IMG/VR virus record: IMGVR_UViG_3300007351_000018
Strand: one strand, 5' to 3'
From: a virus
Length of the DNA stretch: 47,425 nt
Program-made: the position numbers and the translations under genes
The notes under the pieces: model-generated
The model's database searches: none
The model's input: only the letters and a program-made list of their open reading frames with translations
What the model was told of the DNA's origin: nothing
Shown: positions 1,869-45,448 of the stretch, one piece after another
Layout: each line of letters starts with the position of its first letter
Numbering within the stretch: the stretch's first letter is position 1

Positions 1869-2228
1869 ATGAGCATAAACAAAAGAATTCATCAATTAAG
1901 AAAGCATCTTAAAATAAGCCAGGTTGAATTCGCTGATAAAATAGGCGTTACTCAACCGTCCCTTTCGGACATTGAGAACGGTAAGACGGTCACCATAGAC
2001 AAGCGGAATATAAAATTGATCTGCGGGTCTTTCAATGTCAGTGAAGAATGGCTTGTGAACGGTACGGGAGAAATGTTCGACAAGTCTGACCTTCGATTAT
2101 TGGAACTTGTATCAGAAAAAATTGACAAACTTACCGAATCTGAAAAGAAGCTCATTATCGAATTTATAAGATTAAGCGATAGCCAAAGGGCGATCATTAC
2201 GCAATTTATAAAAAATGTCGGGGAGTGA
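1869..2228 (+). CDS. XRE-family HTH repressor (CI-like)
   Basis: ...RIHQLRKHLKISQVEFADKIGVTQPSLSDIENGK... is a classic Cro/C1 HTH; divergent from the early operon and directly upstream of the integrase. Confidence 0.8.
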   Translation: MSINKRIHQLRKHLKISQVEFADKIGVTQPSLSDIENGKTVTIDKRNIKLICGSFNVSEEWLVNGTGEMFDKSDLRLLELVSEKIDKLTESEKKLIIEFIRLSDSQRAIITQFIKNVGE

Positions 2229-2231
2229 TAC

Positions 2232-3248
2232 ATTATTCGGCTACCAAATGGATTTGGAACTGTTTACAAGCTGAAGGGAACACGTCGCAACCCATGGATC
2301 GCCAGATGCCCGATAGGCTGCTCACAGAATGGGCGTCAGCTTTATAAGACCATAGGCTATTATAAGTCAAGCGAAATAGCCCTGCAAAAATTAGTTGAAT
2401 ACAAATCAAATCCGATCCCCAAAGAAAATATAACGCTCGGAGAACTTTACAAGGAATGGTCCGATTCTAAATACGAATACATCTCGAGACAAACCGCAGA
2501 TTGTTATCGGGCAGGGTGGAAACATCTTTCAAAATATGCCGGGACCCTATATCAGATACTGCGGACCAATCACTACCAATCCATAATCGACAGCAATAAA
2601 AATATGAGCCGGTCATCGCTTGAAAAAATAAAAGTGGTGGCTTATATGTTATGCGAATACGCCATGCAGAATGATATCATAAATAAGAATTACGCCTCTT
2701 TCGTGAGGCTGCCGAAATCCATAAAAGAAGAAAAGCAGGCCTTTACCGACCCTGAAATCAAGAAGATGTTTGACAATGACAAATGCTGGACCGATACGAT
2801 CCTGATGCTGATACATCTTGGCATGAGGATAAATGAATTCCTGGGGATCACCCGATTCGATGTCCACCTTGATGAACAGTACATTATTGGAGGCAATAAG
2901 ACAGAGGCCGGGAAGGGACGTATAATACCTATCCACCCGAAAATAATCGAATATGTGCGGAAGTGGTACAATTACGGCGGTAATTATCTTATCTGCAACG
3001 ACAAGGGACAAGCCATTACCGATAAAGCATATAGAGCGAAATACTACTACCCGGGACTTGAAAGACTTGGTATACGGAAACTCAATCCTCATTGTTGCCG
3101 TCATACATTTGCTTCCTTAATGGCAAAGGCCGGAGCCGATACATTTTCTATCCAGAGGATCCTCGGACATACGAAATATTCGTTCACGGCAGACACCTAT
3201 ACCCATACTGATATTGAAGGTCTTAAAAAAGCCATATCCCAAATATGA
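2232..3248 (+). CDS. int: Tyrosine recombinase / phage integrase, probably starting at a non-canonical ATT
   Basis: Frame is open from 2229 to 3248. Motifs: RLPNGFGTVYKLKGTRRNPW (arm-binding type N-terminus), ITLGELYKEW (core-binding), GMRINEFLGI, HCCRHTFASL, LGHTKYSFTADTYTH (R, H-x-x-R, H, Y). The first ATG/GTG/TTG is at 2604, which would delete the N-terminal domains. GGGGAG lies 6 nt before ATT 2232. Confidence 0.8.
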   Translation: MIRLPNGFGTVYKLKGTRRNPWIARCPIGCSQNGRQLYKTIGYYKSSEIALQKLVEYKSNPIPKENITLGELYKEWSDSKYEYISRQTADCYRAGWKHLSKYAGTLYQILRTNHYQSIIDSNKNMSRSSLEKIKVVAYMLCEYAMQNDIINKNYASFVRLPKSIKEEKQAFTDPEIKKMFDNDKCWTDTILMLIHLGMRINEFLGITRFDVHLDEQYIIGGNKTEAGKGRIIPIHPKIIEYVRKWYNYGGNYLICNDKGQAITDKAYRAKYYYPGLERLGIRKLNPHCCRHTFASLMAKAGADTFSIQRILGHTKYSFTADTYTHTDIEGLKKAISQI

Positions 3249-3330
3249 ATTTGTTAGAAGTTTGTTAGAAGTAGAAACAAGTTTAATCGACTTCCTATGA
3301 TTTATTATAAATACCCTATTGATAATTTAA

Positions 3331-3386
3331 GACATGAAAAAACCCGCTTAGCTATTGATATAAACGGGTTTCATGTCTTTTATTTT
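3331..3386 (+). terminator. Rho-independent terminator after the integrase
   Basis: gacatgaaaaaacccg (3331-3346) pairs imperfectly with cgggtttcatgtc (3365-3377), followed by ttttattttt. Confidence 0.5.
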
Positions 3387-3439
3387 TGGTGGAGATGAGG
3401 GGGATCGAACCCCTTACCTCTTGAATGCCATTCAAGCGC
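3387..3439 (-). tRNA. Partial tRNA-Ala(GGC): 3' ~53 nt only (anticodon arm to CCA), likely the attP core; not a functional gene
   Basis: Minus strand reads GCGCTTGAATGGCATTCAAGAGGTAAGGGGTTCGATCCCCCTCATCTCCACCA. That gives an anticodon stem-loop CTTGA-AUGGCAU-TCAAG, a T-arm AGGGG-TTCGATC-CCCCT, an acceptor 3' strand with T at position 70, and CCA. No matching 5' acceptor strand or D-arm lies upstream. Confidence 0.75.
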
Positions 3440-3461
3440 ATCTCTCAATGAATAGTGACTT

Positions 3462-3602
3462 TCAAGCCATTTTGTTAGAAGTTTGTAAGTTTTTCTGATT
3501 CTTGATCAATCCCTTGGCAGAGGCCAGTAACCTCTCAATATTCTTATCCGATAACTTTGTCATAAGTATATTGATTTCGGTTTCAATTTCTTTCCTTTTC
3601 AT
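3462..3602 (-). CDS. Hypothetical 46-aa protein
   Basis: ATG at 3602-3600 after GGAGG; translation MKRKEIETEINILMTKLSDKNIERLL...; overlaps the right arm repeat. Confidence 0.3.
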   Translation of the reverse strand: MKRKEIETEINILMTKLSDKNIERLLASAKGLIKNQKNLQTSNKMA

Positions 3603-3695
3603 ATTCGGGCCTCCGGAAGCGGAAGATTTTGTATATTATTATTATAAACCCGAATATATTAAACCGCAATAGGAATATTGAATTATTTCATGGGT

Positions 3696-3941
3696 CTAGT
3701 GGTATATAAACTGTATCAGGTCGTTTGGCTTTAATTCTCTGCCGATGCGTTTGCTTAAGTATTCTGCAATTATGGCCAATGACTCTAACATCATTGGCTT
3801 ACCCTTTTTTATGCGTGCAAGAACATCGGCCGACAAGCCTGTTGCCTGAGTGACTTCATAATTTTTAATGCCGTATTTCACCATTAACCCTATTAAAGGT
3901 AAGTAAGATATCTCAATCCTCATACGAGAATTGTATATCAT
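3696..3941 (-). CDS. HTH (XRE/Cro-type) DNA-binding protein divergent from parM
   Basis: ...YGIKNYEVTQATGLSADVLARIKKGKPMMLESLAIIAEYL... Confidence 0.6.
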   Translation of the reverse strand: MIYNSRMRIEISYLPLIGLMVKYGIKNYEVTQATGLSADVLARIKKGKPMMLESLAIIAEYLSKRIGRELKPNDLIQFIYH

Positions 3942-4027
3942 TTCCTTTAAAATTTCAGTATATTCGATAAAAGTGTAAACATTTAGGCTTTATCCGAATA
4001 TATTAGATTATAAACGATTATATAGAG

Positions 4028-4891
4028 GTGAAATTGAATATGATTCTAGGCATAGACATCGGAAACTGTATGACAAAAACATCAAAAGGGTACATATTTG
4101 AGTCAAAATGTTCGCGGATAGCAGGACTGTTGAGGTCTGAAATGATTGCAACAGATGAAGGACTATGGTACATCGGTGAGGGTACATATGACACGGAGTA
4201 CAGGAAGGTCAGCAAAAGGGGATTGCGTACCTTGTTTTTGTATGCGGTAGCCAAAAGTACCGATGAACCTGTGAAAGTGGTGGTGGGTTTACCCCTGTCA
4301 CAGTATAAACTTGACAAAGACGCTCTCCGTTCAACTCTAATAAGCACCAAAGTAAACCATGTATCAATCAACAATGTCCCTCGCAAGGTCATCATTGATG
4401 ATGTGGCGGTATATCCCGAAGGATTTGCGGCGGTAATCGGCTCTGACTTCTCCGGCATTGTCATTGACATTGGCGGTCGCACAACGGATATTGCGGAGGT
4501 GGAAATGGGGGATAGAATCAAGGTGGGTAATTCATTCTCCTTGCCGATGGGAACGCTAAACCTTTACCATGACTTTATCAAGTCGCTCAACAGCACGGGG
4601 CTTGATTTACGTCCAGAGGATGCAGGAAGGATATTGCAACACGGCTTGACGATTGACGGGGAGAAACAAGATGTAGACAAGGGCATATTCAAGTCGTACA
4701 TTGATACCCTCGTCAGTCAGCTACGGGTGGAATATCCCATACGGACACACAATGTCCTAGTCATTGGTGGTGGCGGTCAGCTATTATTTCAGGCTATTAA
4801 AGCCAAGATTCCGCAAGCTGTGTTGATACCTGATTCAATATTTGCCAATGCTTACGGATTTGAGAAGGTGGGGCGATCGCTGTGGAGTTAA
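4028..4891 (+). CDS. parM: ParM/StbA (Alp) family actin-like segregation ATPase
   Basis: ILGIDIGNCMTKTS (phosphate 1), VVVGLPLSQY, VYPEGFAAV, IVIDIGGRTTDI (phosphate 2), VLVIGGGG (adenosine). GTG start at 4028, or ATG at 4040. Confidence 0.8.
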   Translation: MKLNMILGIDIGNCMTKTSKGYIFESKCSRIAGLLRSEMIATDEGLWYIGEGTYDTEYRKVSKRGLRTLFLYAVAKSTDEPVKVVVGLPLSQYKLDKDALRSTLISTKVNHVSINNVPRKVIIDDVAVYPEGFAAVIGSDFSGIVIDIGGRTTDIAEVEMGDRIKVGNSFSLPMGTLNLYHDFIKSLNSTGLDLRPEDAGRILQHGLTIDGEKQDVDKGIFKSYIDTLVSQLRVEYPIRTHNVLVIGGGGQLLFQAIKAKIPQAVLIPDSIFANAYGFEKVGRSLWS

Positions 4892-5037
4892 GAATACCTG
4901 TATCGTTTAGACGAAAAAAAGACAAAGAGTTATATGATCATGTCAAAACAAAGTTCTGCGCGAGTGCATATATAAAGGAATTAATCAAGGCCGACATGGA
5001 GAAGAAGAAAGAAAAGAAGGATATATTCAATTTCTAG
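4882..5037 (+). CDS. Ribbon-helix-helix protein, ParR-like partition adaptor candidate
   Basis: GTG at 4882 overlaps the parM stop. 51 aa: VELRIPVSFRRKKDKELYDHVKTKFCASAYIKELIKADME..., a beta-strand then two helices typical of CopG/Arc folds. Confidence 0.5.
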   Translation: MELRIPVSFRRKKDKELYDHVKTKFCASAYIKELIKADMEKKKEKKDIFNF

Positions 5038-5136
5038 TTCAAAGTATGGTTCAAAGTATAGTCATATTACTGATTGGCTATACGGCTTTAAATATGTTAT
5101 TTTATAAGGTTTTATAAAAAGCAAGTTAATGGGGGT

Positions 5137-6372
5137 GTGGTGATGAAGTGGGTTGGTTTGGGTTTGGGGTTGGCTGGGGCAGCACTCGCCTGTGGTTCGG
5201 TGCTTACCTCGGTGGGGATGGCTTTACCCCTCTCCCCGTGGTGGATTGTTGGTAGAGGATTAGCCTTAGAGGTTATTAACCATGAGAGCAAGTATGAGAA
5301 GGTGTTTAGAATGTGTGGATTGGAGAATAAGGCGAAACAGATACCTCTTGTTATACGCAAGCAGGGCAATAACCTTATAGTACATATGCCTAATGGGATA
5401 TGTCAGAAAGACTTTGAAAGGCATCAGCAGGAAATCGAGCAAGCCATAAATAAGAAAATCGAGTTTTCCTTTAATAAGGAATTGGTTATTAAACTTTTGG
5501 ACAATAACTTGAAATATGATTATTCGTTTGAGTTATTAAGTGAATCTAAACAACTGAACATCCTGATAGGTCAGTCACGGGAAGGGAAATTCTTTCTTGA
5601 CATTACTGATTGTCCCCATGTGATAATCGCAGGGGAAACGGGATCAGGGAAGTCCTCCTTGCTTGATACCATAGTGTTATCCCTGTTACTTGGTGAGTAT
5701 AACGTGGACTTACACTTAATAGACTTTCAGGCGGTCGGCCTCGGCAAGTATGAGGATTGCCGAAAGGTCAAGTCTTATGGCGAAACCCCGAAAGACTTTG
5801 AAATGCTCATGCAAGACTTATCAGCAGAAAATGAACGCCGTCTTAAATTATTCCGCAGCGTAAAGAACAAGGTTTATATTGATAGCTTGGAGGCATGGAA
5901 TAAAAGGTTCACCCCTATGCCGTATAAGGTAGTTATCATTGACGAATTTTCCCGACTGGCTGAATCAAATTATGAGTACTTGATGGAGAAGTTTCGCACC
6001 ATGATAAGTATGTCAAGGAAGGTAGGTATACATTTCATATGTGCCATGCAAAGGCCGGATGTGAAGATCATAGCAGGAAGTATCAAAGCCAATATGCCGG
6101 TCAGAATAGCAGGGAAAACAGTCAGTCAAGTTGATAGCGAAGTCATACTCGATATGCCAGGTGCGGAGGAAATTAAGAATCCTGGACGGTTCCTTGTCAA
6201 GTACTGCGGTGAGTTGAAAGAGTTCCAGTTAAACTACATTGAATCGTCAAAGATACGGAAGTTGTTGAAGAAACAGGATGCCTTTAGGACTGCGGAAGAA
6301 ATCAAGCAGGAGAGAATAGAAAAGATGAAGGAGTTAAGGGCAAAATGTATCAACCCGTATGTGGAAAAATGA
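5137..6372 (+). CDS. Membrane-anchored FtsK/SpoIIIE-family DNA-translocase-like ATPase (TcpA/coupling-protein-like)
   Basis: Hydrophobic N-terminus WVGLGLGLAGAALACGSVLTSVGMAL; Walker A IIAGETGSGKSS; Walker B VVIIDEF; ...ICAMQRPD... Likely ATG at 5143 after GGGGGTG. Confidence 0.8.
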   Translation: MVMKWVGLGLGLAGAALACGSVLTSVGMALPLSPWWIVGRGLALEVINHESKYEKVFRMCGLENKAKQIPLVIRKQGNNLIVHMPNGICQKDFERHQQEIEQAINKKIEFSFNKELVIKLLDNNLKYDYSFELLSESKQLNILIGQSREGKFFLDITDCPHVIIAGETGSGKSSLLDTIVLSLLLGEYNVDLHLIDFQAVGLGKYEDCRKVKSYGETPKDFEMLMQDLSAENERRLKLFRSVKNKVYIDSLEAWNKRFTPMPYKVVIIDEFSRLAESNYEYLMEKFRTMISMSRKVGIHFICAMQRPDVKIIAGSIKANMPVRIAGKTVSQVDSEVILDMPGAEEIKNPGRFLVKYCGELKEFQLNYIESSKIRKLLKKQDAFRTAEEIKQERIEKMKELRAKCINPYVEK

Positions 6373-6911
6373 TTACCGAGAAGGATCAGAGTATATTAAA
6401 CTTCATAGAGGATTTTCACATTGTAACATCAGGTCAGTTACAAAGATTATTTTACCCTCATTCGTACCGTTACTGTATGACACGGCTTGCTAAGTTGGTA
6501 AGGGATGGCTTGATAAAAAAGACGGTCAGCACGATCAATAATTGTCATGCGTATTACATAGGAAAAAAGCCGGTACAAATTCATCACGATCTGATTAGAA
6601 CAGAAATATATACGCATTTAAGTGCCAAATTTGACGTTTTGGAATGGCATAACGAATACACCTTCGAGCATATCAGACCGGATGCCCTATGCTACATCAG
6701 AGATCATGAAATAGTATTCCCTGTGATAGTGGAGATACATCTTAATAACAAGTTCGATTTTGACAAGTACACCATGGACTTTATACCGATATTTGGGTGC
6801 AAGCCGAGAGTGCTGATAATAACAGATAGGGAAGTTACCATACCGCATACAGGGTTAGTGTTTAAGGTGATAGGACTGGATATGAAGGGGATAGAGAATA
6901 TATTAAAGTAG
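6345..6911 (+). CDS. Replication-relaxation family protein (wHTH plus PD-(D/E)xK-like C-terminus)
   Basis: ...ILNFIEDFHIVTSGQLQRLFYPHSYRYCMTRLAKLVRDGLI... then ...IRPDALCYI...FPVIVEIHLNNK. An alternative ATG at 6369 forms an ATGA overlap with the FtsK-like stop. Confidence 0.6.
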   Translation: MYQPVCGKMITEKDQSILNFIEDFHIVTSGQLQRLFYPHSYRYCMTRLAKLVRDGLIKKTVSTINNCHAYYIGKKPVQIHHDLIRTEIYTHLSAKFDVLEWHNEYTFEHIRPDALCYIRDHEIVFPVIVEIHLNNKFDFDKYTMDFIPIFGCKPRVLIITDREVTIPHTGLVFKVIGLDMKGIENILK

Positions 6912-6923
6912 GAGGGTATATAT

Positions 6924-7154
6924 ATGAATGAACTTGTCAAACCCAACAATCTTATAGTCAGCAATTCAGGCAATAAATACTTATCAGTAAACATATCATT
7001 TTCACGGACTTACATATATTCTAACAACGGCAAATTACAAAGTAGTGGTGGTATACTTCCATATGCGTTAGCTGGGGTGGGAATGTTGCTGATGTATGGC
7101 ATTGCAAATGTTTCCCTTGATAATGTGAGCCAGCTTGTACGCTTATTAAAGTAG
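6924..7154 (+). CDS. Hypothetical small protein with a C-terminal hydrophobic segment
   Basis: 76-aa ORF after GGAGGG; ...GGILPYALAGVGMLLMYGIANV... Confidence 0.4.
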   Translation: MNELVKPNNLIVSNSGNKYLSVNISFSRTYIYSNNGKLQSSGGILPYALAGVGMLLMYGIANVSLDNVSQLVRLLK

Positions 7155-7196
7155 GCTTTTTAAGCAAAAATATATCACACGAAGGGGATAAAACCT

Positions 7197-7391
7197 ATGC
7201 TACACATAGCAAAAACACTTTTAGTTAAAACAGCCATAAAGGCAATGAATCCACAAATTAAGAAGAAAGAGCAAGCAAGGCACACCAAGAAAAAAGAGTA
7301 CAGAAAACAGATGATAAAGATGTTCGGGCGTACACGATATTATTTGTCTGTGTGGTTCGGGCCGTGGATATTATATGAGGGGCGCAGTTAG
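7197..7391 (+). CDS. Hypothetical small basic protein
   Basis: 64-aa Lys/Arg-rich ORF after GAAGGGGA. Confidence 0.35.
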   Translation: MLHIAKTLLVKTAIKAMNPQIKKKEQARHTKKKEYRKQMIKMFGRTRYYLSVWFGPWILYEGRS

Positions 7392-7412
7392 CCCCTTGAC
7401 TTTTATTGAAAA

Positions 7413-7440
7413 TTGACATATAGGGAAAATAAGGTATAAT
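7413..7440 (+). promoter_or_regulatory. Near-consensus sigma-A-type promoter of the dockerin moron
   Basis: TTGACA (7413-7418), 16 nt, TATAAT (7435-7440). Confidence 0.6.
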
Positions 7441-7463
7441 ATAAATGAAGGGAGAGTATTATT

Positions 7464-7721
7464 ATGGTAAAAAAGGTTATTGTATTGGCATTGTTATTCA
7501 CTCTCATGGTTTCTGCGTGTGCTTCTGCCCCAATGTTCGGTGATGTCACCAATGATGGATTGATAGACGAGGCAGACATACAGTGTCTAAAGGACTATAT
7601 ACTCGGCAAAGATGTAACGATCAACCTAGACAACGCAGACGTTAATCAGGACGGAAGCATAAATGTACTTGACTTACTGAAAATCAAACGACATATTATC
7701 GGCGTAGAAGAGATCGAATAG
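7464..7721 (+). CDS. Secreted lipoprotein consisting only of a type-I dockerin module
   Basis: Signal peptide with lipobox MVKKVIVLALLFTLMVSAC; two Ca-binding dockerin repeats, GDVTNDGLIDEADI and ADVNQDGSINVLDL. Confidence 0.8.
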   Translation: MVKKVIVLALLFTLMVSACASAPMFGDVTNDGLIDEADIQCLKDYILGKDVTINLDNADVNQDGSINVLDLLKIKRHIIGVEEIE

Positions 7722-7755
7722 TAAAAAAGCCCCCGATTAAGGGGGCTTTACTTTT
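7722..7755. terminator. Bidirectional rho-independent terminator between the dockerin gene and the holin gene
   Basis: aaaaaAGCCCCCgattaaGGGGGCTttactttt: a GC stem flanked by an A-run and a T-rich run. Confidence 0.8.
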
Positions 7756-7951
7756 AGAATCCGTCTGGTTTTGTCGGGTTGTTAAGTATACCGAATATCA
7801 CAAGCATTTGTAGTACTCCTGCTGCAACATCACCTATCATACCAGCATCAACGCCAAGACTAGCCCATAAGCCAGTTATCTGACCGAGTGATATTATCTG
7901 CGCAACAATAGATGTCCATACTACCCATGACCTTAATCTGTTCTGTTCCAT
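7754..7951 (-). CDS. Holin
   Basis: 65 aa with two hydrophobic helices (WVVWTSIVAQIISLGQI and VAAGVLQMLVIFGIL); last gene of the lysis cassette, next to the endolysin. Confidence 0.65.
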   Translation of the reverse strand: MEQNRLRSWVVWTSIVAQIISLGQITGLWASLGVDAGMIGDVAAGVLQMLVIFGILNNPTKPDGF

Positions 7952-7963
7952 GACAATCTCCTT

Positions 7964-9208
7964 TCAATATTTTTCTACTAATACTTTAATCCCTGCCTTT
8001 AAACTATTGTATTTATCTGATACAGCCGTAAGGTCTTTTGCCATAAGGCTTATCTGCTCGTCTTTAAGTTTATTATCCTTTTGTAGCTGTTCAGCTATTG
8101 CCTTATAGTCAATCTCAATTATAGGCACTTCAAGTATCTGCTTCCATATCTTGATAATATCTTGACCGTATGTAGTTCCAGGATAAGCCCATTTACCGTT
8201 AAGCTGTTCCCAGTTGGGTGCAGCACCAATAAGTTTTTTCTTAATAAGTTCGCCCCATCTTTGATCTACACAAGGTTGATTAAGTGGTTCTTTTGTAGCA
8301 TACCCCTTTAAGTGCTGTATCTGCGCCCTTATACCCGTACGCCAATCGGGAAACTTATTACCATTATGCTCTTTTATCGGTTGTCCATCTGGCGTATATC
8401 CGATGATTTTTTCTGAACTATCAACACCTAAACCGGCGGGATTGTTCCATTCTATTTTTGCATCACCTGTAAACCGCCAATAGTTGGTTTCCTTTAACGC
8501 CTGTGCAAAGGCAATATCACCCCGTACACCTTCGGTTTCTCCTTCTTCAATGTACATTTGTCCAAGATTATCAGGTGCATTGGGATTGACTCGCTTAATG
8601 AAAGTGTTCATCTGTTCTGCGGTAGCCTGTGATTTACCCATTATAGGGTTCATAGCATTCACTCCCAATTTATAATGATTTTTTATAACATTAGCGATTG
8701 CATATGCCTGCTTGTTTAAATTCATTTTGCCAAAATCACCCTTGTGATCCATGAAAAATGATTCTAAGATGATTGACTGTACGGGCAAGCTATAACGCGG
8801 TATTCCATACCAATCCTGCCCTGCAATAGTCGTACTTTCCTTGCTGAATATCCTGCGATATATAACGCCTATTTCTGATACCATGCCTTTTACAAGCGCA
8901 TCTGCAAGGTGCTTACAATCCTCCGTTGCCTTGATACTATATATAGCCTCACACCCATTCGCCTTACCATCATAAGCATTATGATGTAAGGATAGTAACA
9001 AGTCTGCGTTATTGTCTTTTGCTACTTTCGCTCTAGCAGACAATGACATATCTATATCGCTTGTCCTTGTCATTATGACTTCGCAGTAATCCTTTAATAA
9101 GTCTTTTACCTTTAAAGATAGTGGAAGGTTTATATCTTTTTCCTTATACCCATTCGCTATTGCGCCGGGTTCAGTTCCTCCATGTCCGGGATCAATCACT
9201 ATTTTCAT
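7964..9208 (-). CDS. Bifunctional endolysin: N-acetylmuramoyl-L-alanine amidase (Amidase_3) plus glucosaminidase-like domain
   Basis: KIVIDPGHGGTEPGA...DINL...LLLSLHHNA (amidase_3); ...EGVRGDIAFAQALKETNYWRF...NNPAGLG (glucosaminidase/FlgJ-type). Confidence 0.8.
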   Translation of the reverse strand: MKIVIDPGHGGTEPGAIANGYKEKDINLPLSLKVKDLLKDYCEVIMTRTSDIDMSLSARAKVAKDNNADLLLSLHHNAYDGKANGCEAIYSIKATEDCKHLADALVKGMVSEIGVIYRRIFSKESTTIAGQDWYGIPRYSLPVQSIILESFFMDHKGDFGKMNLNKQAYAIANVIKNHYKLGVNAMNPIMGKSQATAEQMNTFIKRVNPNAPDNLGQMYIEEGETEGVRGDIAFAQALKETNYWRFTGDAKIEWNNPAGLGVDSSEKIIGYTPDGQPIKEHNGNKFPDWRTGIRAQIQHLKGYATKEPLNQPCVDQRWGELIKKKLIGAAPNWEQLNGKWAYPGTTYGQDIIKIWKQILEVPIIEIDYKAIAEQLQKDNKLKDEQISLMAKDLTAVSDKYNSLKAGIKVLVEKY

Positions 9209-9495: not shown

Positions 9496-10302
9496 TTAAT
9501 TTAACAGGTTTATTTTGTATCTCCACGTTATACCCTGCTCTGGATGGATACCGAATAACCAATATGTCTGGCAACCATCCATACCGAGATATTCCAAACA
9601 AAAATCATCATTATCGCCCATGGTGCCATTGAAAAATATGTTCGTTGACCTCCACGGCATATCACCTGTGATATGAAAATGTCCCATGAATACATTATTA
9701 AAAGTGTCTTTCAAGGATTGCTCCCACCGCATGACCCTTTGTACCGCACCATACCAGGGTATGTTCTGATACATCTTGATTCCTGCCCCGTGATAGAGAA
9801 GGTTCTTCCATCCCATTATTTCAACTATCTCATAAAATTCCTCCGATATGTTGAATGTAACCCTCTCATTGCCTCGCATGGCAAGTTTCATTTCGTCATA
9901 AAATACTAAGTCCCAGTTATTACCCTCGTGGGTAAAGTTAGTCACCCTGCCGTGATTGCCCCTTACGCCATGGACATATATGTGGTCAAAGTATTTTGTA
10001 CCCATCAATAAAAACGGCTCAAACAGTTCCACGGCCTTTATACATTGTTCCCGTCCGTATCGTGCCTGTTGGTCTGTATGGTGTGGATGTGTCTTGTAAA
10101 TATTGTCATTGTCTATGTGATCGCCAAGATCGAAAATATGTAAGTCCTCTATGGTGTAGCTTTTCCGTATGATGTCCACTACTTTAAGGGTATTGTGTAT
10201 AAGATTGCTGTGTCTTGTTTCTGCGACTTCCGTATTATATGATGATGTTTTCTTGCCTATATGTATATCGCTTATTACAAGTACCGCAGTTTCCTTTTCC
10301 AC
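9496..10302 (-). CDS. Calcineurin-like metallophosphoesterase
   Basis: Full motif set: VISDIHIG (D-x-H), LGDHIDND (G-D-x-x-D), RGNHGR (G-N-H), MGHFH (G-H-x-H). Confidence 0.8.
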   Translation of the reverse strand: MEKETAVLVISDIHIGKKTSSYNTEVAETRHSNLIHNTLKVVDIIRKSYTIEDLHIFDLGDHIDNDNIYKTHPHHTDQQARYGREQCIKAVELFEPFLLMGTKYFDHIYVHGVRGNHGRVTNFTHEGNNWDLVFYDEMKLAMRGNERVTFNISEEFYEIVEIMGWKNLLYHGAGIKMYQNIPWYGAVQRVMRWEQSLKDTFNNVFMGHFHITGDMPWRSTNIFFNGTMGDNDDFCLEYLGMDGCQTYWLFGIHPEQGITWRYKINLLN

Positions 10303-36144: not shown

Positions 36145-36690
36145 ATGATAATAGGCTATGCTAGAGTATCCACAGATGAACAATGTCTTGATCGCCAGAT
36201 TGACGCGCTCACCAAATACGGCATAGATACGCTATACACCGAAAAAATGACAGGTACTCGCGCCAATAGACCGGAACTCGACAAGATTAAATTGCAAGCC
36301 CGTAAAGGTGACACGGTTGTCATCGAAAGTCTTAGCCGTCTAGGTCGTAGCACAAAAGACTTACTAACACTAATCAGCACATTTGACGAAAAAGGCATAA
36401 AACTTGTATCGCTCAAGGAGAGTATCAGCACGGACACAGCCGCAGGAAAACTGATAACAAGTATATTGTCTGCCCTGTGTGAGTTCGAGCGTGATACCAT
36501 CGTTCAGCGTACAAAGGAGGGTATGGCCGCCGCCAAATCAAGGGGGAGAAACGGAGGGCGGCCACGGAAAAACAGTAAAAGCATCGAAAAGGCAACACAG
36601 CTATATAATGCTGGTAAATCTATATCTGAAATAAAATCATTTACAGGTGTTAGTGCTACTACACTTTACCGCTACTTAAAGGAGGGTTGA
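36145..36690 (+). CDS. Small serine recombinase (resolvase/invertase family)
   Basis: MIIGYARVSTDEQ (catalytic Ser), VIESLSRLGRSTKDLL, C-terminal HTH ...AGKSISEIKSFTGVSATTLYRYL. Confidence 0.85.
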   Translation: MIIGYARVSTDEQCLDRQIDALTKYGIDTLYTEKMTGTRANRPELDKIKLQARKGDTVVIESLSRLGRSTKDLLTLISTFDEKGIKLVSLKESISTDTAAGKLITSILSALCEFERDTIVQRTKEGMAAAKSRGRNGGRPRKNSKSIEKATQLYNAGKSISEIKSFTGVSATTLYRYLKEG

Positions 36691-40131: not shown

Positions 40132-40680
40132 TTATCCCTCCCCTGTGTATTCTGGTAAAGCCATTTTTTCTGCTAATGCCTCAATCATCTGCTTAGTAGA
40201 TTCCGGCAACATAGCCCTACTTTGTTCTCTTTGCTGCACAACTTTGTATGACCTCATAAAATTGCTCTGTATCACGCTGTTTACTGTTTCGATGTCCATC
40301 ATGGCCCATTCCCGTAATTGATTCGGACTGCCAATAACCTTTTGGATCACTGGAGGCAATACCTCAAAACACTCCACCGCCCGATAATTAGAATCCTGTA
40401 TCGCTTGAAACACTTTATTCCAGGCTTCCATTTCCGTCATGCTTGGTGGCGTTGTAATCTCATACATCTTTGTTTTTACGTCCGCTATTGTTGGGGGAAA
40501 TTTCAAAGTACAGATCAATGACTTAACCGCCTCAATAACGACATTCGGATTATCCCCCGCAAACATCATTGACCATAACTTTACTGCTTCCTCTGCCTCT
40601 TTCGGCTTAATGTCCTTATAAAATGCCGGGTATGCTGTTTTCATCAGCCCCAATGTCATTATTGTTTCTTGTTTATTCAT
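40132..40680 (-). CDS. Replicative-helicase loader-like protein (SPP1 G39P-like)
   Basis: ...TIMTLGLMKTAYPAFYKDIKPKEAEEAVKLWSMMF... resembles the G39P N-terminal signature (from memory); lies downstream of the replisome organiser. Confidence 0.4.
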   Translation of the reverse strand: MNKQETIMTLGLMKTAYPAFYKDIKPKEAEEAVKLWSMMFAGDNPNVVIEAVKSLICTLKFPPTIADVKTKMYEITTPPSMTEMEAWNKVFQAIQDSNYRAVECFEVLPPVIQKVIGSPNQLREWAMMDIETVNSVIQSNFMRSYKVVQQREQSRAMLPESTKQMIEALAEKMALPEYTGEG

Positions 40681-41438
40681 ACCTTGCCCCCTTCCAACAT
40701 ATTGAAAAACAGATTGCCGGATTCAGGTTTATCCTGTTTCACCTTATCCACTACCCATGACAATATCGCTCTGTAATCAGACTTGTATTTATAACCCTTA
40801 GCACCCTTAGCGTTATCCAGTATATCTATCATTTTTTTTGTATTGACCTCACCATACTTATCAATAAGTTTTTGATATTCATCTTCGGTCATGGTTACAA
40901 ATTCGGCATAGGGTATTTTGGGATTCGCCGTTTGTTCTTCTTCTTGTTCTTCTTCTTGTTCTTCTTCTTGTTCTTCTTCTTGTTCTTCTTCTTGTTCTGG
41001 TTCTTCTTCTGGTTCTTCTTTTTCCCCCAAGTCTATGGATAGTCTATCTATACTGTATCCATACTTGTCGCACAATTTATAAAACAAGTCTACAAACGCC
41101 TTATTCTTCACGCTTTGCAGTTCTTTAAGTATGCAACTTTTTACCTTTGGGCTTTTGAGTGAATTATGTTTTAACCAATTAAGCAATATTACCTCATTGG
41201 TCTTGTCATCATAGAGTATTTTTTTATATTTAATAAAGCTTGTTAACAGTTGGGATAGTCTATCTATACTGTATCCTGTTTCTATCATGGCAAGTTTTTT
41301 ATTAAATTCATATATGCCACATTGTGAGGTTTTGCTATTGGTCATAAGATAGAGATAAAAATACCTTTCCTCTGGCTTTAGATCAATCACAAAACCGTCT
41401 TGCCAAAAACTGATATGTACTAATCTGTATATCGCCAT
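40677..41438 (-). CDS. Phage replisome organiser (DnaD-like) with an internal poly-Glu repeat
   Basis: MAIYRLVHISFWQDGFVIDLKPEERYFYLYLMTNSKTSQCGIYE is the typical replisome-organiser N-terminus. The ATG at 41438 after GAGGTAGGG is preferred over 41486. Confidence 0.6.
   Translation of the reverse strand: MAIYRLVHISFWQDGFVIDLKPEERYFYLYLMTNSKTSQCGIYEFNKKLAMIETGYSIDRLSQLLTSFIKYKKILYDDKTNEVILLNWLKHNSLKSPKVKSCILKELQSVKNKAFVDLFYKLCDKYGYSIDRLSIDLGEKEEPEEEPEQEEEQEEEQEEEQEEEQEEEQTANPKIPYAEFVTMTEDEYQKLIDKYGEVNTKKMIDILDNAKGAKGYKYKSDYRAILSWVVDKVKQDKPESGNLFFNMLEGGKV
40930..41030. repeat. 12-nt tandem repeat (ttgttcttcttc and variants) encoding (EEEQ)n / EEPE
   Basis: About 5 exact copies plus 2 variants, read directly from the sequence. 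Confidence 0.85.
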
Positions 41439-41591
41439 ATACCCTACCTCACAAAGTTTATTTCTTCTCCGTCCTATCCTCCACATACGCCATACACTTC
41501 GCCACCCCTGTAAATTTCTCGTCCTCTAGGCGATTGCATCCGAGTCACTTGTGGCATATCGACAGTTTTATGCGTGCATTGTTGATGGGGA

Positions 41592-42206: not shown

Positions 42207-43049
42207 TCAGACCTCCGTATCTAAAGATTCTTGTCCATCTATGGCTTTATCGTCATATGCAGATTTAAGCCACCAGTTCCAGTAATCATCTACTGTTTTA
42301 AATGATTGCTTGCGTCCTGTTTTCTCCCTGTGTTTTATATGTCGTTCTAATGCTCTCTTGTAAGCATCGGAAAATTTAGGATACCTTAATAATTCCCTCG
42401 CCATATTTGCCGATAAAGGACAACCTATACAGCCTAAACGAGTAAACCCCTCATCATATAAGCAACAATGCTTTATTCCCCCATTGTTAAGGTAATCCCA
42501 TACATCCTCGTCCGACCAATCAATAATCGGATTAACAACTCTTTTTCCTTTTCGCACACAGTTCTCGAATCCCAACCTGCCATCGTCATTATCGTTGAAT
42601 AATATTGAATTTCCTTTACCGTGTCGAACCACTTCAAATGTATTTCTGCTGTTTTTTCTTCTTGCGCTTTCCGCCCACCTAACTCCAGTAACACATATCC
42701 GTCCCTGTCCGCCATGCTCTTTTAGTTCGGAACAACAAAACCGTGCCATTCGTGTCGGCAATCCCCTTTTCTCTATAAGCCTCCATATAGTAGTTTGAGG
42801 ACGGTCAATAATCACATCAGGATAGTTTTCTCGCATAAAGTAAATCAACTCTGGCGGATCAACAGTGGTAAGATTATAATGTGCATCAAATTTAACTCCT
42901 GCTTCTTTGGCAAGGTGGTATATACATTGACTGTCTTTGCCACCACTAAAGGCAAGGTAATACCCCTCTGGTGGCTCAAATGCTTGAAGCCGGTCTATCG
43001 CTATTTTAACCTTGTCCCTCTCACCAAAGAGCGTATTTTCGATTAACAC
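42207..43049 (-). CDS. Phosphoadenosine-phosphosulfate (PAPS) reductase family PP-loop protein
   Basis: PP-loop YLAFSGGKDSQCI; ...RFCCSELKE...; C-terminal Cys cluster CCLYDEGFTRLGCIGCP; GTG start. Confidence 0.75.
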   Translation of the reverse strand: MLIENTLFGERDKVKIAIDRLQAFEPPEGYYLAFSGGKDSQCIYHLAKEAGVKFDAHYNLTTVDPPELIYFMRENYPDVIIDRPQTTIWRLIEKRGLPTRMARFCCSELKEHGGQGRICVTGVRWAESARRKNSRNTFEVVRHGKGNSILFNDNDDGRLGFENCVRKGKRVVNPIIDWSDEDVWDYLNNGGIKHCCLYDEGFTRLGCIGCPLSANMARELLRYPKFSDAYKRALERHIKHREKTGRKQSFKTVDDYWNWWLKSAYDDKAIDGQESLDTEV

Positions 43050-44773: not shown

Positions 44774-45448
44774 TTATACATATCTTGCTTTAATGGCGAT
44801 TTTTATATCTTCGTAAAACTCGACTCCTGGTATGGTAACTTTCCCCTTGCTGATCTGTGCCAATTTATTTAAGGCAGACACATCTACCGGCCTTATAACC
44901 GTACCCATAATAGACACGGGCACTATTGACTCATTGATTATTCTTGCCTTCCATGTAACCGAACTTGAAGAGTCCCTTGCCCTAACAGGATCGATGGGTG
45001 CGAATTGTATGTTTTTCGCCTTCTCTGCTTGGTCCATGGCATATTCAGCCTGCTCTATTTTACCTTCTGCCTCCGCCTCCATTGCCACTTTAAGCAACCG
45101 GGCCTCTTCTTCTTTTCTGAATCTTTCCTGTTCTTCCTTTAAGATTCTTTCTTCCTCAAGCTTCTTTCTTTGATATTCTGATAATTTAGCCTTAATGCAC
45201 GATTCGGCTTTTGTAAAAGGCTCAGACAACTGTTTTTCTTTGGCGCAAATATCCTTCCATGCCCCGTATGCCTTTTCTTTCAACGGCTTCCAATACTCCG
45301 TTATAACATTCTGCCGGAGTTTAATTTCCTTACAGAAATCCACCGCGTTTCTGTAGTCATCAGGCGTATCGACTACTATCTGCGATACCTTAGCCTCGAT
45401 TGATGTGATTGCCTGTTTTTGCTGTTCGATTACTTGTAAATCTTCCAT
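44774..45448 (-). CDS. Hypothetical coiled-coil protein commonly paired with phage recombinases (DUF1351-like)
   Basis: Called from position upstream of the annealing-protein candidate; charged coiled coil ...KKLEEERILKEEQERFRKEEEARLL... Confidence 0.3.
   Translation of the reverse strand: MEDLQVIEQQKQAITSIEAKVSQIVVDTPDDYRNAVDFCKEIKLRQNVITEYWKPLKEKAYGAWKDICAKEKQLSEPFTKAESCIKAKLSEYQRKKLEEERILKEEQERFRKEEEARLLKVAMEAEAEGKIEQAEYAMDQAEKAKNIQFAPIDPVRARDSSSSVTWKARIINESIVPVSIMGTVIRPVDVSALNKLAQISKGKVTIPGVEFYEDIKIAIKARYV

Follow-up and report, generated by a model that had tools for sequence, protein, structure and literature searches.

Why would a phage that encodes its own virion and its own integrase also carry an FtsK-type ATPase coupled to a protein of a relaxase family? 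This question is raised by IMGVR_UViG_3300007351_000018, a phage genome of 47,425 bp (hereafter, the window), in which a gene for an FtsK/SpoIIIE-domain ATPase is overlapped by a gene for a Replic_Relax/MOBC-like nuclease, with a conserved cis element of about 100 bp directly upstream. We hypothesize that these components represent, in a clostridial phage, the known "DNA translocation" cassette of an FtsK/SpoIIIE and a Replic_Relax protein, and that the cassette processes and translocates the phage's own DNA, a reading to which we give a little better than an even chance. New here are the defined cis element and the catalytic residues; the pairing of FtsK and Replic_Relax proteins was itself already known. 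An earlier note on this DNA took the window for a complete phage with its own capsid, and indeed it has direct terminal repeats, a CheckV value of 100%, and terminase and virion genes. The central features are as follows:

5023-5126, no strand assigned: conserved cis element of about 100 bp, with iterons of 12-bp period, a TTGKC box and an AAGCAAGT core, defined from a nine-locus alignment
5143-6372, plus strand: FtsK/SpoIIIE-domain ATPase with a hydrophobic N-terminus, Walker A and B motifs, a QRP motif and a C-terminal CINPY
6369-6911, plus strand: Replic_Relax/MOBC-like protein with an N-terminal winged helix-turn-helix (wHTH) and a C-terminal PD-(D/E)XK domain (H73, D105, E122, K133)

The upstream gene had been described as encoding a membrane-anchored FtsK-family ATPase with the motifs GETGSGKSS and VVIIDEF, and its family assignment is well founded. 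The protein matches PF01580 (FtsK_SpoIIIE) with an E-value of 1.8e-17 and 64 bits (cut-off 24) and phrog_1358 ("FtsK/SpoIIIE-like protein") at 5e-67, while the Walker A motif GETGSGKS, the Walker B motif VVIIDEF, the QRP motif and the CINPY that ends its short charged C-terminal tail are kept across 32 homologues. Residues 1 to about 45 are hydrophobic (Kyte-Doolittle mean up to 1.8), as they are in the homologues, and membrane anchoring is a prediction from this N-terminus. The domains alpha (PF17854), gamma (PF09397) and 4TM (PF13491) of cellular FtsK are carried by the distant cellular matches, but were found neither in the window protein by Pfam scan nor in about 70 close homologues by their precomputed Pfam lists. 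The protein reaches 80 bits in the NCBIfam FtsK equivalog model, which has a cut-off of 1566, and 25 bits in the model of the Streptomyces TraB type (NF041214, plasmid_TraB), which has a cut-off of 800. The open reading frame (ORF) extends over 5137-6372 from a GTG, but translation more probably begins with the ATG at 5143, which sits 7 nt after a GGGGG Shine-Dalgarno sequence; the resulting 409-aa form is the recorded one (P0050).

The downstream ORF spans 6345-6911. Its recorded form (180 aa, P0001) starts at 6369 with an ATG that overlaps the TGA of the FtsK-like gene as ATGA, and an alternative ATG at 6345, preceded by an AAGGAG Shine-Dalgarno sequence, would lengthen the overlap to 28 nt. 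Judging from these overlaps, the two genes are translationally coupled with either start, which agrees with what had been proposed. The protein matches PF13814 (Replic_Relax) at 29.2 bits (cut-off 25.3), so that two of the profile searches that the earlier note had suggested, FtsK_SpoIIIE and Replic_Relax, gave scores above their cut-offs; the latter match covers only residues 18-59 of the wHTH. A comparison by hhalign of the family profile with full-length Replic_Relax proteins, both from Bacillus phages and from clostridial plasmids, extends the relationship to 151 columns including the catalytic domain (98.8% probability, E 7e-17), and Replic_Relax clusters are the nearest Atlas clusters of the nuclease. 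By tblastn, the window nuclease found nothing in 50,697 phage records, because its subfamily has diverged too far from the proteins of Bacillus phages; it is therefore the profile-profile comparison that shows the homology. PF13814 is the MOBC relaxase family (PMC5357655, PMC12857230), and was placed in the PD-(D/E)XK superfamily in 2012 (PMC3424549).

Structural comparison leads to the same two-domain architecture. The AlphaFold models are confident (pLDDT 94 for the whole nuclease and 92 for its C-terminal domain), and the N-terminal domain matches MarR-type winged helix structures (Z 8.8, rmsd 1.7 over 64 residues). The C-terminal domain, folded separately and compared with the PDB by VIA-align, is closest to NucS (Z 8.8), BstEII (8.6), Can2 (8.3) and VC1899 (8.0), and its best PDB matches are nearly all PD-(D/E)XK nucleases. 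When PDB sequences were searched with a profile, a chance match was the only result, and Foldseek, run with the whole model and with the nuclease domain, gave no match at E <= 0.001. Three residues, H73, D105 and E122, do not vary across 70 representatives that share 24-33% identity with the window protein, and K133 and Y134 are nearly invariant there. The winged-helix residues are highly conserved as well. Of the wHTH and the PD-(D/E)xK-like motif RPD...VEIH that had been read from this sequence, the fold, the RPD Asp (D105) and the VEIH Glu (E122) stand; the VEIH His is variable, and the conserved basic residue is K133, to which the catalytic Lys appears to have moved.

The cis element lies downstream of two further genes of the cassette:

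4040-4891, plus strand: actin-like ParM/ALP (actin-like protein) gene, matching PF17989 ALP_N (4.3e-11), PF21522 MreB-like_C (1.2e-06) and phrog_691 "partition protein" (2.3e-44)
4882-5037, plus strand: gene for a 51-aa ribbon-helix-helix (RHH)-like protein, overlapping the ParM stop; phrog_4223 (3.1e-12); a beta-strand followed by two helices by sequence

The spacer between the RHH stop and the FtsK start covers 5038-5142. Direct repeats GTTCAAAGTAT at 5037 and 5049 form the iterons, and invariant T residues at 5026, 5038 and 5050 in the alignment of nine loci mark a 12-nt period. The TTGKC box follows at 5074-5078, with its G and C among the invariant columns of the same alignment, and a fixed distance of 38 nt separates it from the AAAAAGCAAGT motif, which bears the invariant core AAGCAAGT at 5119-5126. 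This exact 11-mer occurs only once in the window, and the core A[AT]AAGCAAGT is found at most about 150 bp upstream of the FtsK gene in 13 of 13 related loci. The core is constant; the iteron sequence is lineage-specific (TTCAAA, TTCATA, ATTCC, TACCAAAC or GTTTCGTTA), and in distant members of the cassette direct-repeat arrays stand 5' of the genes, several of them spaced by 12 bp or a multiple; the spacing is 12 bp in C. perfringens p4, mostly 36 bp in phiCM3 and 35 bp in pCKL555A. When metagenome contigs were scanned with the strict pattern of the element, the 11 matches comprised five further true loci, all ordered ALP, RHH, element, FtsK and nuclease, and six A/T-rich chance matches without these genes; the same scan of viral contigs gave nothing.

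The whole arrangement of iterons, box and core is inverted relative to the genes in five related loci (L005, L006, L009, L016 and L018; for example, at 8553-8753 of L005), which form a sublineage that includes Ruminiclostridium papyrosolvens C7. This inversion is easier to reconcile with a DNA site than with a promoter or a 5' untranslated region (UTR), and no sigma-70-like promoter was predicted within the element. Both a fixed rearrangement and an invertible segment are conceivable for the inverted sublineage. The small binding protein encoded upstream varies together with the iteron type: the RHH beta-strand differs by lineage, and where the iterons are TACCAAAC, the upstream protein is an XRE-type helix-turn-helix (HTH) protein. 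Since the wHTH of the nuclease is conserved while iterons and small binding protein co-vary, we infer that the iterons are occupied by the small protein and that it is the invariant box or core to which the nuclease binds. The RHH-like protein is predicted to bind DNA, either as a ParR-like adaptor or in the manner of a relaxosome accessory protein, and its homologues stand 5' of the element in seven related loci (L005, L009, L017, L020, L025, L028 and L030). The element is a candidate processing site for the nuclease, and a conserved site inside the cassette suggests action on the phage's own DNA.

Such a site, next to a protein of this family, raises the possibility of conjugative mobilization, in which the nuclease would be a MOBC relaxase acting at an oriT-like element, and the FtsK-like ATPase a TcpA-type coupling protein working with the type IV secretion system of a co-resident element, which might allow virion-free transfer of the excised or replicating phage genome from cell to cell. 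The earlier note had likened the pair to a relaxase and its coupling ATPase, and the identity of PF13814 as the MOBC relaxase family bears this out (PMC5357655). The MOBC relaxases pAD1 TraX (oriT2) and CloDF13 MobC share with the window protein PF13814 and the combination of a wHTH with a restriction-endonuclease-like domain (PMC12857230; PMC5357655; PMC3424549). TraX, which has its wHTH at the N-terminus and forms no covalent intermediate, binds five direct repeats located 70-120 bp from nic; in MOBC relaxases generally the binding site consists of direct repeats distant from the processed site (PMC12857230). The layout of the window element resembles that of the pAD1 oriT, with direct repeats at a distance of about 40-95 bp from a conserved core (PMC12857230). 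RHH auxiliary proteins are usual in relaxosomes and FtsK-like TcpA coupling proteins occur in Bacillota (PMC12857230); here an RHH protein is encoded beside the site, and the ATPase is built like FtsK-like coupling proteins, with an N-terminal hydrophobic hairpin, PF01580 and no gamma domain. Mobilization stood foremost in the earlier note and is also how Pathria et al. (2012; PMC3357382) interpreted the module.

However, known MOBC relaxases reside on conjugative or mobilizable elements and use VirD4/TraG-type rather than FtsK-type coupling proteins (PMC5357655), and the window ATPase belongs to PF01580 and not to the T4SS-DNA_transf/TraG family. No type IV secretion match was obtained among the window ORFs that were scanned with profile libraries (not every ORF was scanned), and MOB-suite types all ten pair-bearing plasmids as non-mobilizable. 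The pair also occurs in the strictly lytic phages SPO1 and 0305phi8-36 and in B. megaterium podophages, where conjugative escape makes little sense (PMC3357382), and a 47-kb genome with a functional capsid would gain little from it. Inverted repeats of an oriT-like kind, which had been suggested for 6.9-7.4 kb, proved to be only weak intragenic repeats. Nicking is reported in the literature for no phage member of the MOBC-like family. On balance, we consider conjugative mobilization unlikely.

Pairs of FtsK and Replic_Relax genes have been mentioned in genome papers since the mid-2000s. Pathria et al. (2012) related the phage protein family to the CloDF13 MobC relaxase by HHpred; the module, comprising a relaxase, a translocase, membrane proteins and an actin-like protein, was named the "DNA translocation operon", with partial versions in SPO1, GBSV1, BV1 and the Gamma, Cherry, Fah and Wbeta phages, and the reason for its association with phages was stated as not known (PMC3357382). 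The window has the constituents of this cassette, namely a MobC-like gene beside a translocase-like ATPase gene, a predicted small membrane protein and an actin-like gene in a phage. B. thuringiensis phage 0305phi8-36 likewise combines, as an accessory module, a MobC-like protein (wHTH plus nuclease) with a P-loop ATPase, one or more membrane proteins and an actin-like protein. Its ATPase, however, is VirD4/TraG-like without a membrane anchor and a VirB6-like gene is present, whereas the window has a PF01580 ATPase with a hydrophobic N-terminus, an actin-like gene paired with an RHH gene, and no VirB-like gene that we could find.

The cassette is also found in the temperate Bacillus siphophages Wbeta, Gamma, Cherry, Fah, phiCM3, BtCS33, BceA1, PfEFR-4 and vB_BhaS-171, which share with the window the gene order and overlap, the position between lysis and integrase or regulator genes, direct repeats upstream, and homologous nuclease domains. 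For example, phiCM3, vB_BhaS-171 and PfEFR-4 have in succession a lysin, an HTH gene, small genes, the FtsK gene, an overlapping gene of about 200 aa annotated as a replication-relaxation or "replication initiation" protein, and an integrase or regulators. They differ in that their ATPase is only about 25% identical to that of the window, and in that small membrane proteins replace ParM and RHH. In pCKL555A, a 59-kb phage-plasmid of C. kluyveri DSM 555, holin and lysin genes precede ParM, small genes, FtsK and, overlapping FtsK, a gene of the Replic_Relax kind, much as in the window. The nucleases of pCKL555A and of C. perfringens plasmids of 34-40 kb are 28-32% identical to that of the window and also have direct-repeat arrays upstream; these elements are extrachromosomal, whereas the phage of the window encodes an integrase of full length and bears an attP-like tRNA fragment. 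No phage genes occur in C. perfringens p4, a plain plasmid that carries Rep genes of its own and ParM. A serine recombinase gene lies just upstream of the FtsK-nuclease pair in p4.

Searches of phage records indicate that the pairing is common rather than unusual in phages, contrary to the earlier note. Of 363 phage records with FtsK-like genes, 241 belong to Bacillus phages, and Replic_Relax relatives (query: the vB_BhaS-171 protein) occur in 105 records, from Bacillus (97), Geobacillus (6) and Staphylococcus (2) phages; the Replic_Relax match overlaps the FtsK gene in 29 of 30 records sampled. More than 100 cultured phages of Bacillus and Geobacillus have the pair in their annotation, and carriers include Wbeta, Gamma, Cherry, Fah, phiCM3, B. 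megaterium podophages and Andromeda-like phages of B. pumilus. Ten records in the plasmid collection (Clostridium 8, Thermoanaerobacterium 2) have a relative, always with an adjacent FtsK gene. For the window-type nuclease itself, there are about 49 clusters at 90% identity, almost all metagenomic and many on contigs of 37-68 kb, and 648 representatives at 50% identity with E <= 0.001; the FtsK and nuclease genes are adjacent in 12 of 12 related loci, in addition to the five loci found through the DNA motif, and the two genes overlap throughout the relatives. Named hosts of these relatives are Ruminiclostridium papyrosolvens C7 and Bacillota metagenome-assembled genomes, and one relative, on a 620-kb contig, is an integrated prophage in which tail genes, HTH, ALP, RHH, FtsK, nuclease, two small genes and a 330-aa integrase are followed by host genes. 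The pair thus ranks among the most widespread accessory cassettes that phages of Bacillus and Clostridium carry, to which the window adds a clostridial (Ruminiclostridium-type) branch. A module described as early as 2012 (PMC3357382) and carried by ordinary integrated prophages, phage-plasmids, plasmids and lytic phages is no evidence for a chimera of a phage and an integrative or mobilizable element, as had been proposed.

This distribution bears on another explanation, namely an inheritance module of spore formers, in which ParM and RHH would position unintegrated phage DNA, and the pump, guided by the nuclease at the cis site, would clear this DNA from the division or sporulation septum or move it across, for inheritance by daughter cells or the forespore. 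The carriers that we found belong almost entirely to endospore-forming genera: Bacillus and Geobacillus against two Staphylococcus phages, Clostridium and Thermoanaerobacterium among the plasmids, and Ruminiclostridium among the contigs. Occurrence in lytic and temperate phages alike would be expected if the benefit were carriage into spores, and a link of the phage FtsK/SpoIIIE gene to sporulation has long been suggested (PMC4113786, PMC3359378). The pair is also linked to ParM and RHH here, in pCKL555A and in the tyroviruses (PMC9703825). In Tyrovirus Thrax1-5, the "plasmid-like" gp11-gp19 comprise ParM, RHH, an ATPase annotated as type IV secretion and a replication-relaxation protein, with a tyrosine recombinase nearby, although these are large Bacillus phages with the genes spread over nine ORFs, for which the authors proposed a plasmid-prophage lifestyle (PMC9703825). 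As for type II ParMRC systems, the window has the actin-like domains and an RHH-like gene that overlaps the ParM stop, and its iterons lie downstream of the RHH gene, whereas the classical position is upstream of parM. About half of the related loci have the ParM-like gene, and the iterons persist in relatives that lack it.

The host pattern is, however, confounded by phylogeny, by database content and by the use of a Bacillus query, and it is not obvious why segregation would require a nuclease whose active site is invariant. Further, the full-length integrase, the attP-like site and the integrated relative imply that any plasmid state is at most transient. We therefore regard a dedicated inheritance function as possible, but clearly on the doubtful side.

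The name of the Pfam family and its pUA140 reference (PMC3424549) suggest a different role, in which the Replic_Relax protein would nick an origin formed by iterons and core for plasmid-type replication of the prophage, and the FtsK-like protein would resolve or segregate the products. The iterons beside an A/T-rich stretch do look origin-like, and RefSeq labels the Bacillus phage proteins "replication initiation protein". On the other hand, the label appears to be derived from the name. The literature that we found reports no experiment on whether proteins of this PD-(D/E)XK family act in replication, and the window carries its own replication genes in an early replication/recombination module:

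40677-41486, minus strand: DnaD-like replisome organizer
44774-45448, minus strand: exonuclease

Separate Rep genes also stand beside the pair in C. perfringens p4, in RBClin15 and in the tyroviruses (PMC11526630; PMC9703825), and the relative on the 620-kb contig is chromosomally integrated. A role as replication initiator is therefore quite improbable. The presence of separate replication genes in turn favors the translocation hypothesis, and the cassette is an accessory module, not the lytic replication system of the phage.

Least probable is a role in defense, which the earlier note raised as an alternative, or in superinfection exclusion, with an FtsK/HerA-type ATPase and a nuclease acting on incoming foreign DNA. 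In its FtsK domain, the protein is similar to the ATPase portions of SspH and of mad8 from MADS, and the cassette has a moron-rich position on the lysogeny strand and a likely regulator of its own. Yet PADLOC-DB v2 returned only generic ATPase-domain matches (SspH, mad8, HerA), with none for the nuclease and the neighboring genes and no system-level match. A conserved cis element in the phage's own DNA beside the genes, the occurrence of the pair in lytic phages and, alongside partition genes, in plasmids, and a strict synteny inherited within phage lineages, unlike that of shuffled defense islands, also speak against defense.

Returning to the processing and translocation of the phage's own DNA, we propose that the RHH protein, or the variable small DNA-binding protein in its place, would coat the 12-bp iterons, while the winged helix of the nuclease would recognize the invariant core or box, where the nuclease might nick or cut. 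The nucleoprotein complex at 5023-5126 would then be handed to a membrane-anchored, hexameric FtsK-type pump that moves the DNA across a membrane or septum, and ParM filaments, where the ParM-like gene is present, may position the same locus. The destination might be a helper conjugation channel, the daughter cell or septum, or the forespore. Pathria et al. (2012) interpreted the phage cassette in a similar way (PMC3357382). AlpC and AlpA of the CGP3 prophage of Corynebacterium glutamicum provide a precedent for an actin-like protein in an integrated prophage (PMC4446434): AlpC and its DNA-binding adaptor AlpA act on the excised phage DNA (PMC4446434, PMC5539076), although that system has no FtsK-like or nuclease partner and has another adaptor and another host phylum.

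Several points weigh against this hypothesis. Deletion of the operon in 0305phi8-36, the only deletion reported, gave no growth defect (PMC3357382), and the literature reports no experiment with nicking, DNA pumping or a phenotype for the cassette. The same profile scan of window ORFs also lacked a helper conjugation match, and the MOB-suite calls for the plasmids are equally unfavorable. For the nuclease domain, structural comparison gave matches of moderate strength (Z 8-9; Foldseek E > 0.01), and the Pfam match is limited to the winged helix. In addition, the conserved core could be part of a 5' UTR in most lineages, and the iterons could simply be a ParR centromere.

It is tempting to extend the hypothesis to a second, virion-independent DNA route for tailed phages of spore-forming Bacillota, in which the nuclease would mark the site, and the pump with ParM and RHH would drive the genome across a septum into the forespore or through a neighbor's conjugation channel. 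We think that this extension is rather unlikely to be correct, but if it were true, the 100-bp element would be the first defined phage "origin of translocation". Movement of phage DNA by the module without virions would change the view of prophage spread and of spore carriage; otherwise, it would be an ordinary accessory cassette. The cis element, together with the invariant H73, D105 and E122 and the near-invariant K133, makes the functional question approachable by binding and nicking assays.

The operon that contains the pair runs in the order ParM-like, RHH, cis element, FtsK-like ATPase, wHTH/PD-(D/E)XK nuclease and two small proteins, and is flanked by putative control elements:

3696-3941, minus strand: Cro/C1-type HTH regulator, divergent from the ParM-like gene (PF13443 HTH_26, E 4.3e-07)
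3959-4004, plus strand: inverted repeat, possible operator, with 21-nt arms at 3959-3979 and 3982-4002, overlapping a promoter-like site
6924-7154, plus strand: gene for a 76-aa protein with one C-terminal hydrophobic helix; AGGAGG Shine-Dalgarno sequence upstream
7197-7391, plus strand: gene for a 64-aa basic protein, of which the C-terminal part or half is kept 3' of the nuclease gene in most related loci
7376-7398, plus strand: terminator-like hairpin ending the operon, with an 8-pair stem (5 G-C pairs) and a T-rich tail

The HTH regulator is likely the local repressor of the operon. The promoter-like site, TAAACA-17-TATATT at 3976-4004, has 9 of 12 matches as a consensus match only. For the ParM-like gene, the ATG at 4040 after an AGAGGTG Shine-Dalgarno sequence is the more likely start, favored over the listed GTG at 4028. 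The 76-aa protein has no match in Pfam, PHROGs, NCBIfam or PADLOC. The 64-aa protein, also without any family match, has counterparts in the equivalent place, identified by BLASTP or tblastn, in L005-L010, L013-L016, L018, L020, L025 and L030, and is possibly a fourth core component. No RNA family was found by Rfam within 3400-8000.

Nearly all large ORFs of the window, including those for the terminase large subunit and the virion proteins, are on the minus strand. The cassette sits between the lysogeny and the lysis genes, and shares the strand of repressor and integrase:

1869-2228, plus strand: repressor-like HTH, lysogeny gene
2229-3248, plus strand: integrase frame, lysogeny gene
7754-7951, minus strand: holin-like gene
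7964-9208, minus strand: endolysin

The phage is integrative, and the cassette is no substitute for integration. From 2229, right behind the repressor TGA and in frame with the repressor gene, the integrase frame stays open for about 340 codons, with no ATG, GTG or TTG before 2604. An ATT ATT at 2232-2237 follows a GGGGAG Shine-Dalgarno sequence, and the relative L025 has an ATG at the equivalent codon, suggesting that translation either begins at a weak, non-canonical start or reads through from the gene of the repressor. An attP-like region at 3250-3490 contains, at about 3388-3445, the 3' end of a tRNA in reverse complement, with its acceptor and T arm, in which ARAGORN found no intact tRNA, and repeated TTTGTTAGAAGT motifs that flank this fragment at 3250-3275 and 3472-3487 could be arm-type integrase sites. 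The integrase, the attP-like tRNA fragment and the integrated relative speak against an obligate plasmid prophage. A short Xer-like recombinase as a partner of the FtsK-like protein was also rejected, the 214-aa ORF in question being a mere tail of the full-length integrase frame.

Between the cassette and the lysis genes lies a self-contained moron (7413-7755) with a perfect TTGACA-16-TATAAT promoter and a bidirectional terminator. Its gene (7464-7721) encodes an 85-aa protein, secreted or lipoprotein-like, that consists of a type I dockerin (PF00404, 3.4e-14). The dockerin points to a cellulosome-bearing clostridial host, with which the named hosts of the relatives fit. Other genes include a calcineurin-like metallophosphoesterase in the lysis region (9496-10302, minus strand; weak Pfam match, E 2.4e-4), a PAPS-reductase-like gene in the early region (42207-43049, minus strand; phrog_424, 1.4e-40), and a serine recombinase of the DNA-invertase type (36145-36690, plus strand; phrog_125, 5.4e-67), which stands alone among minus-strand genes.

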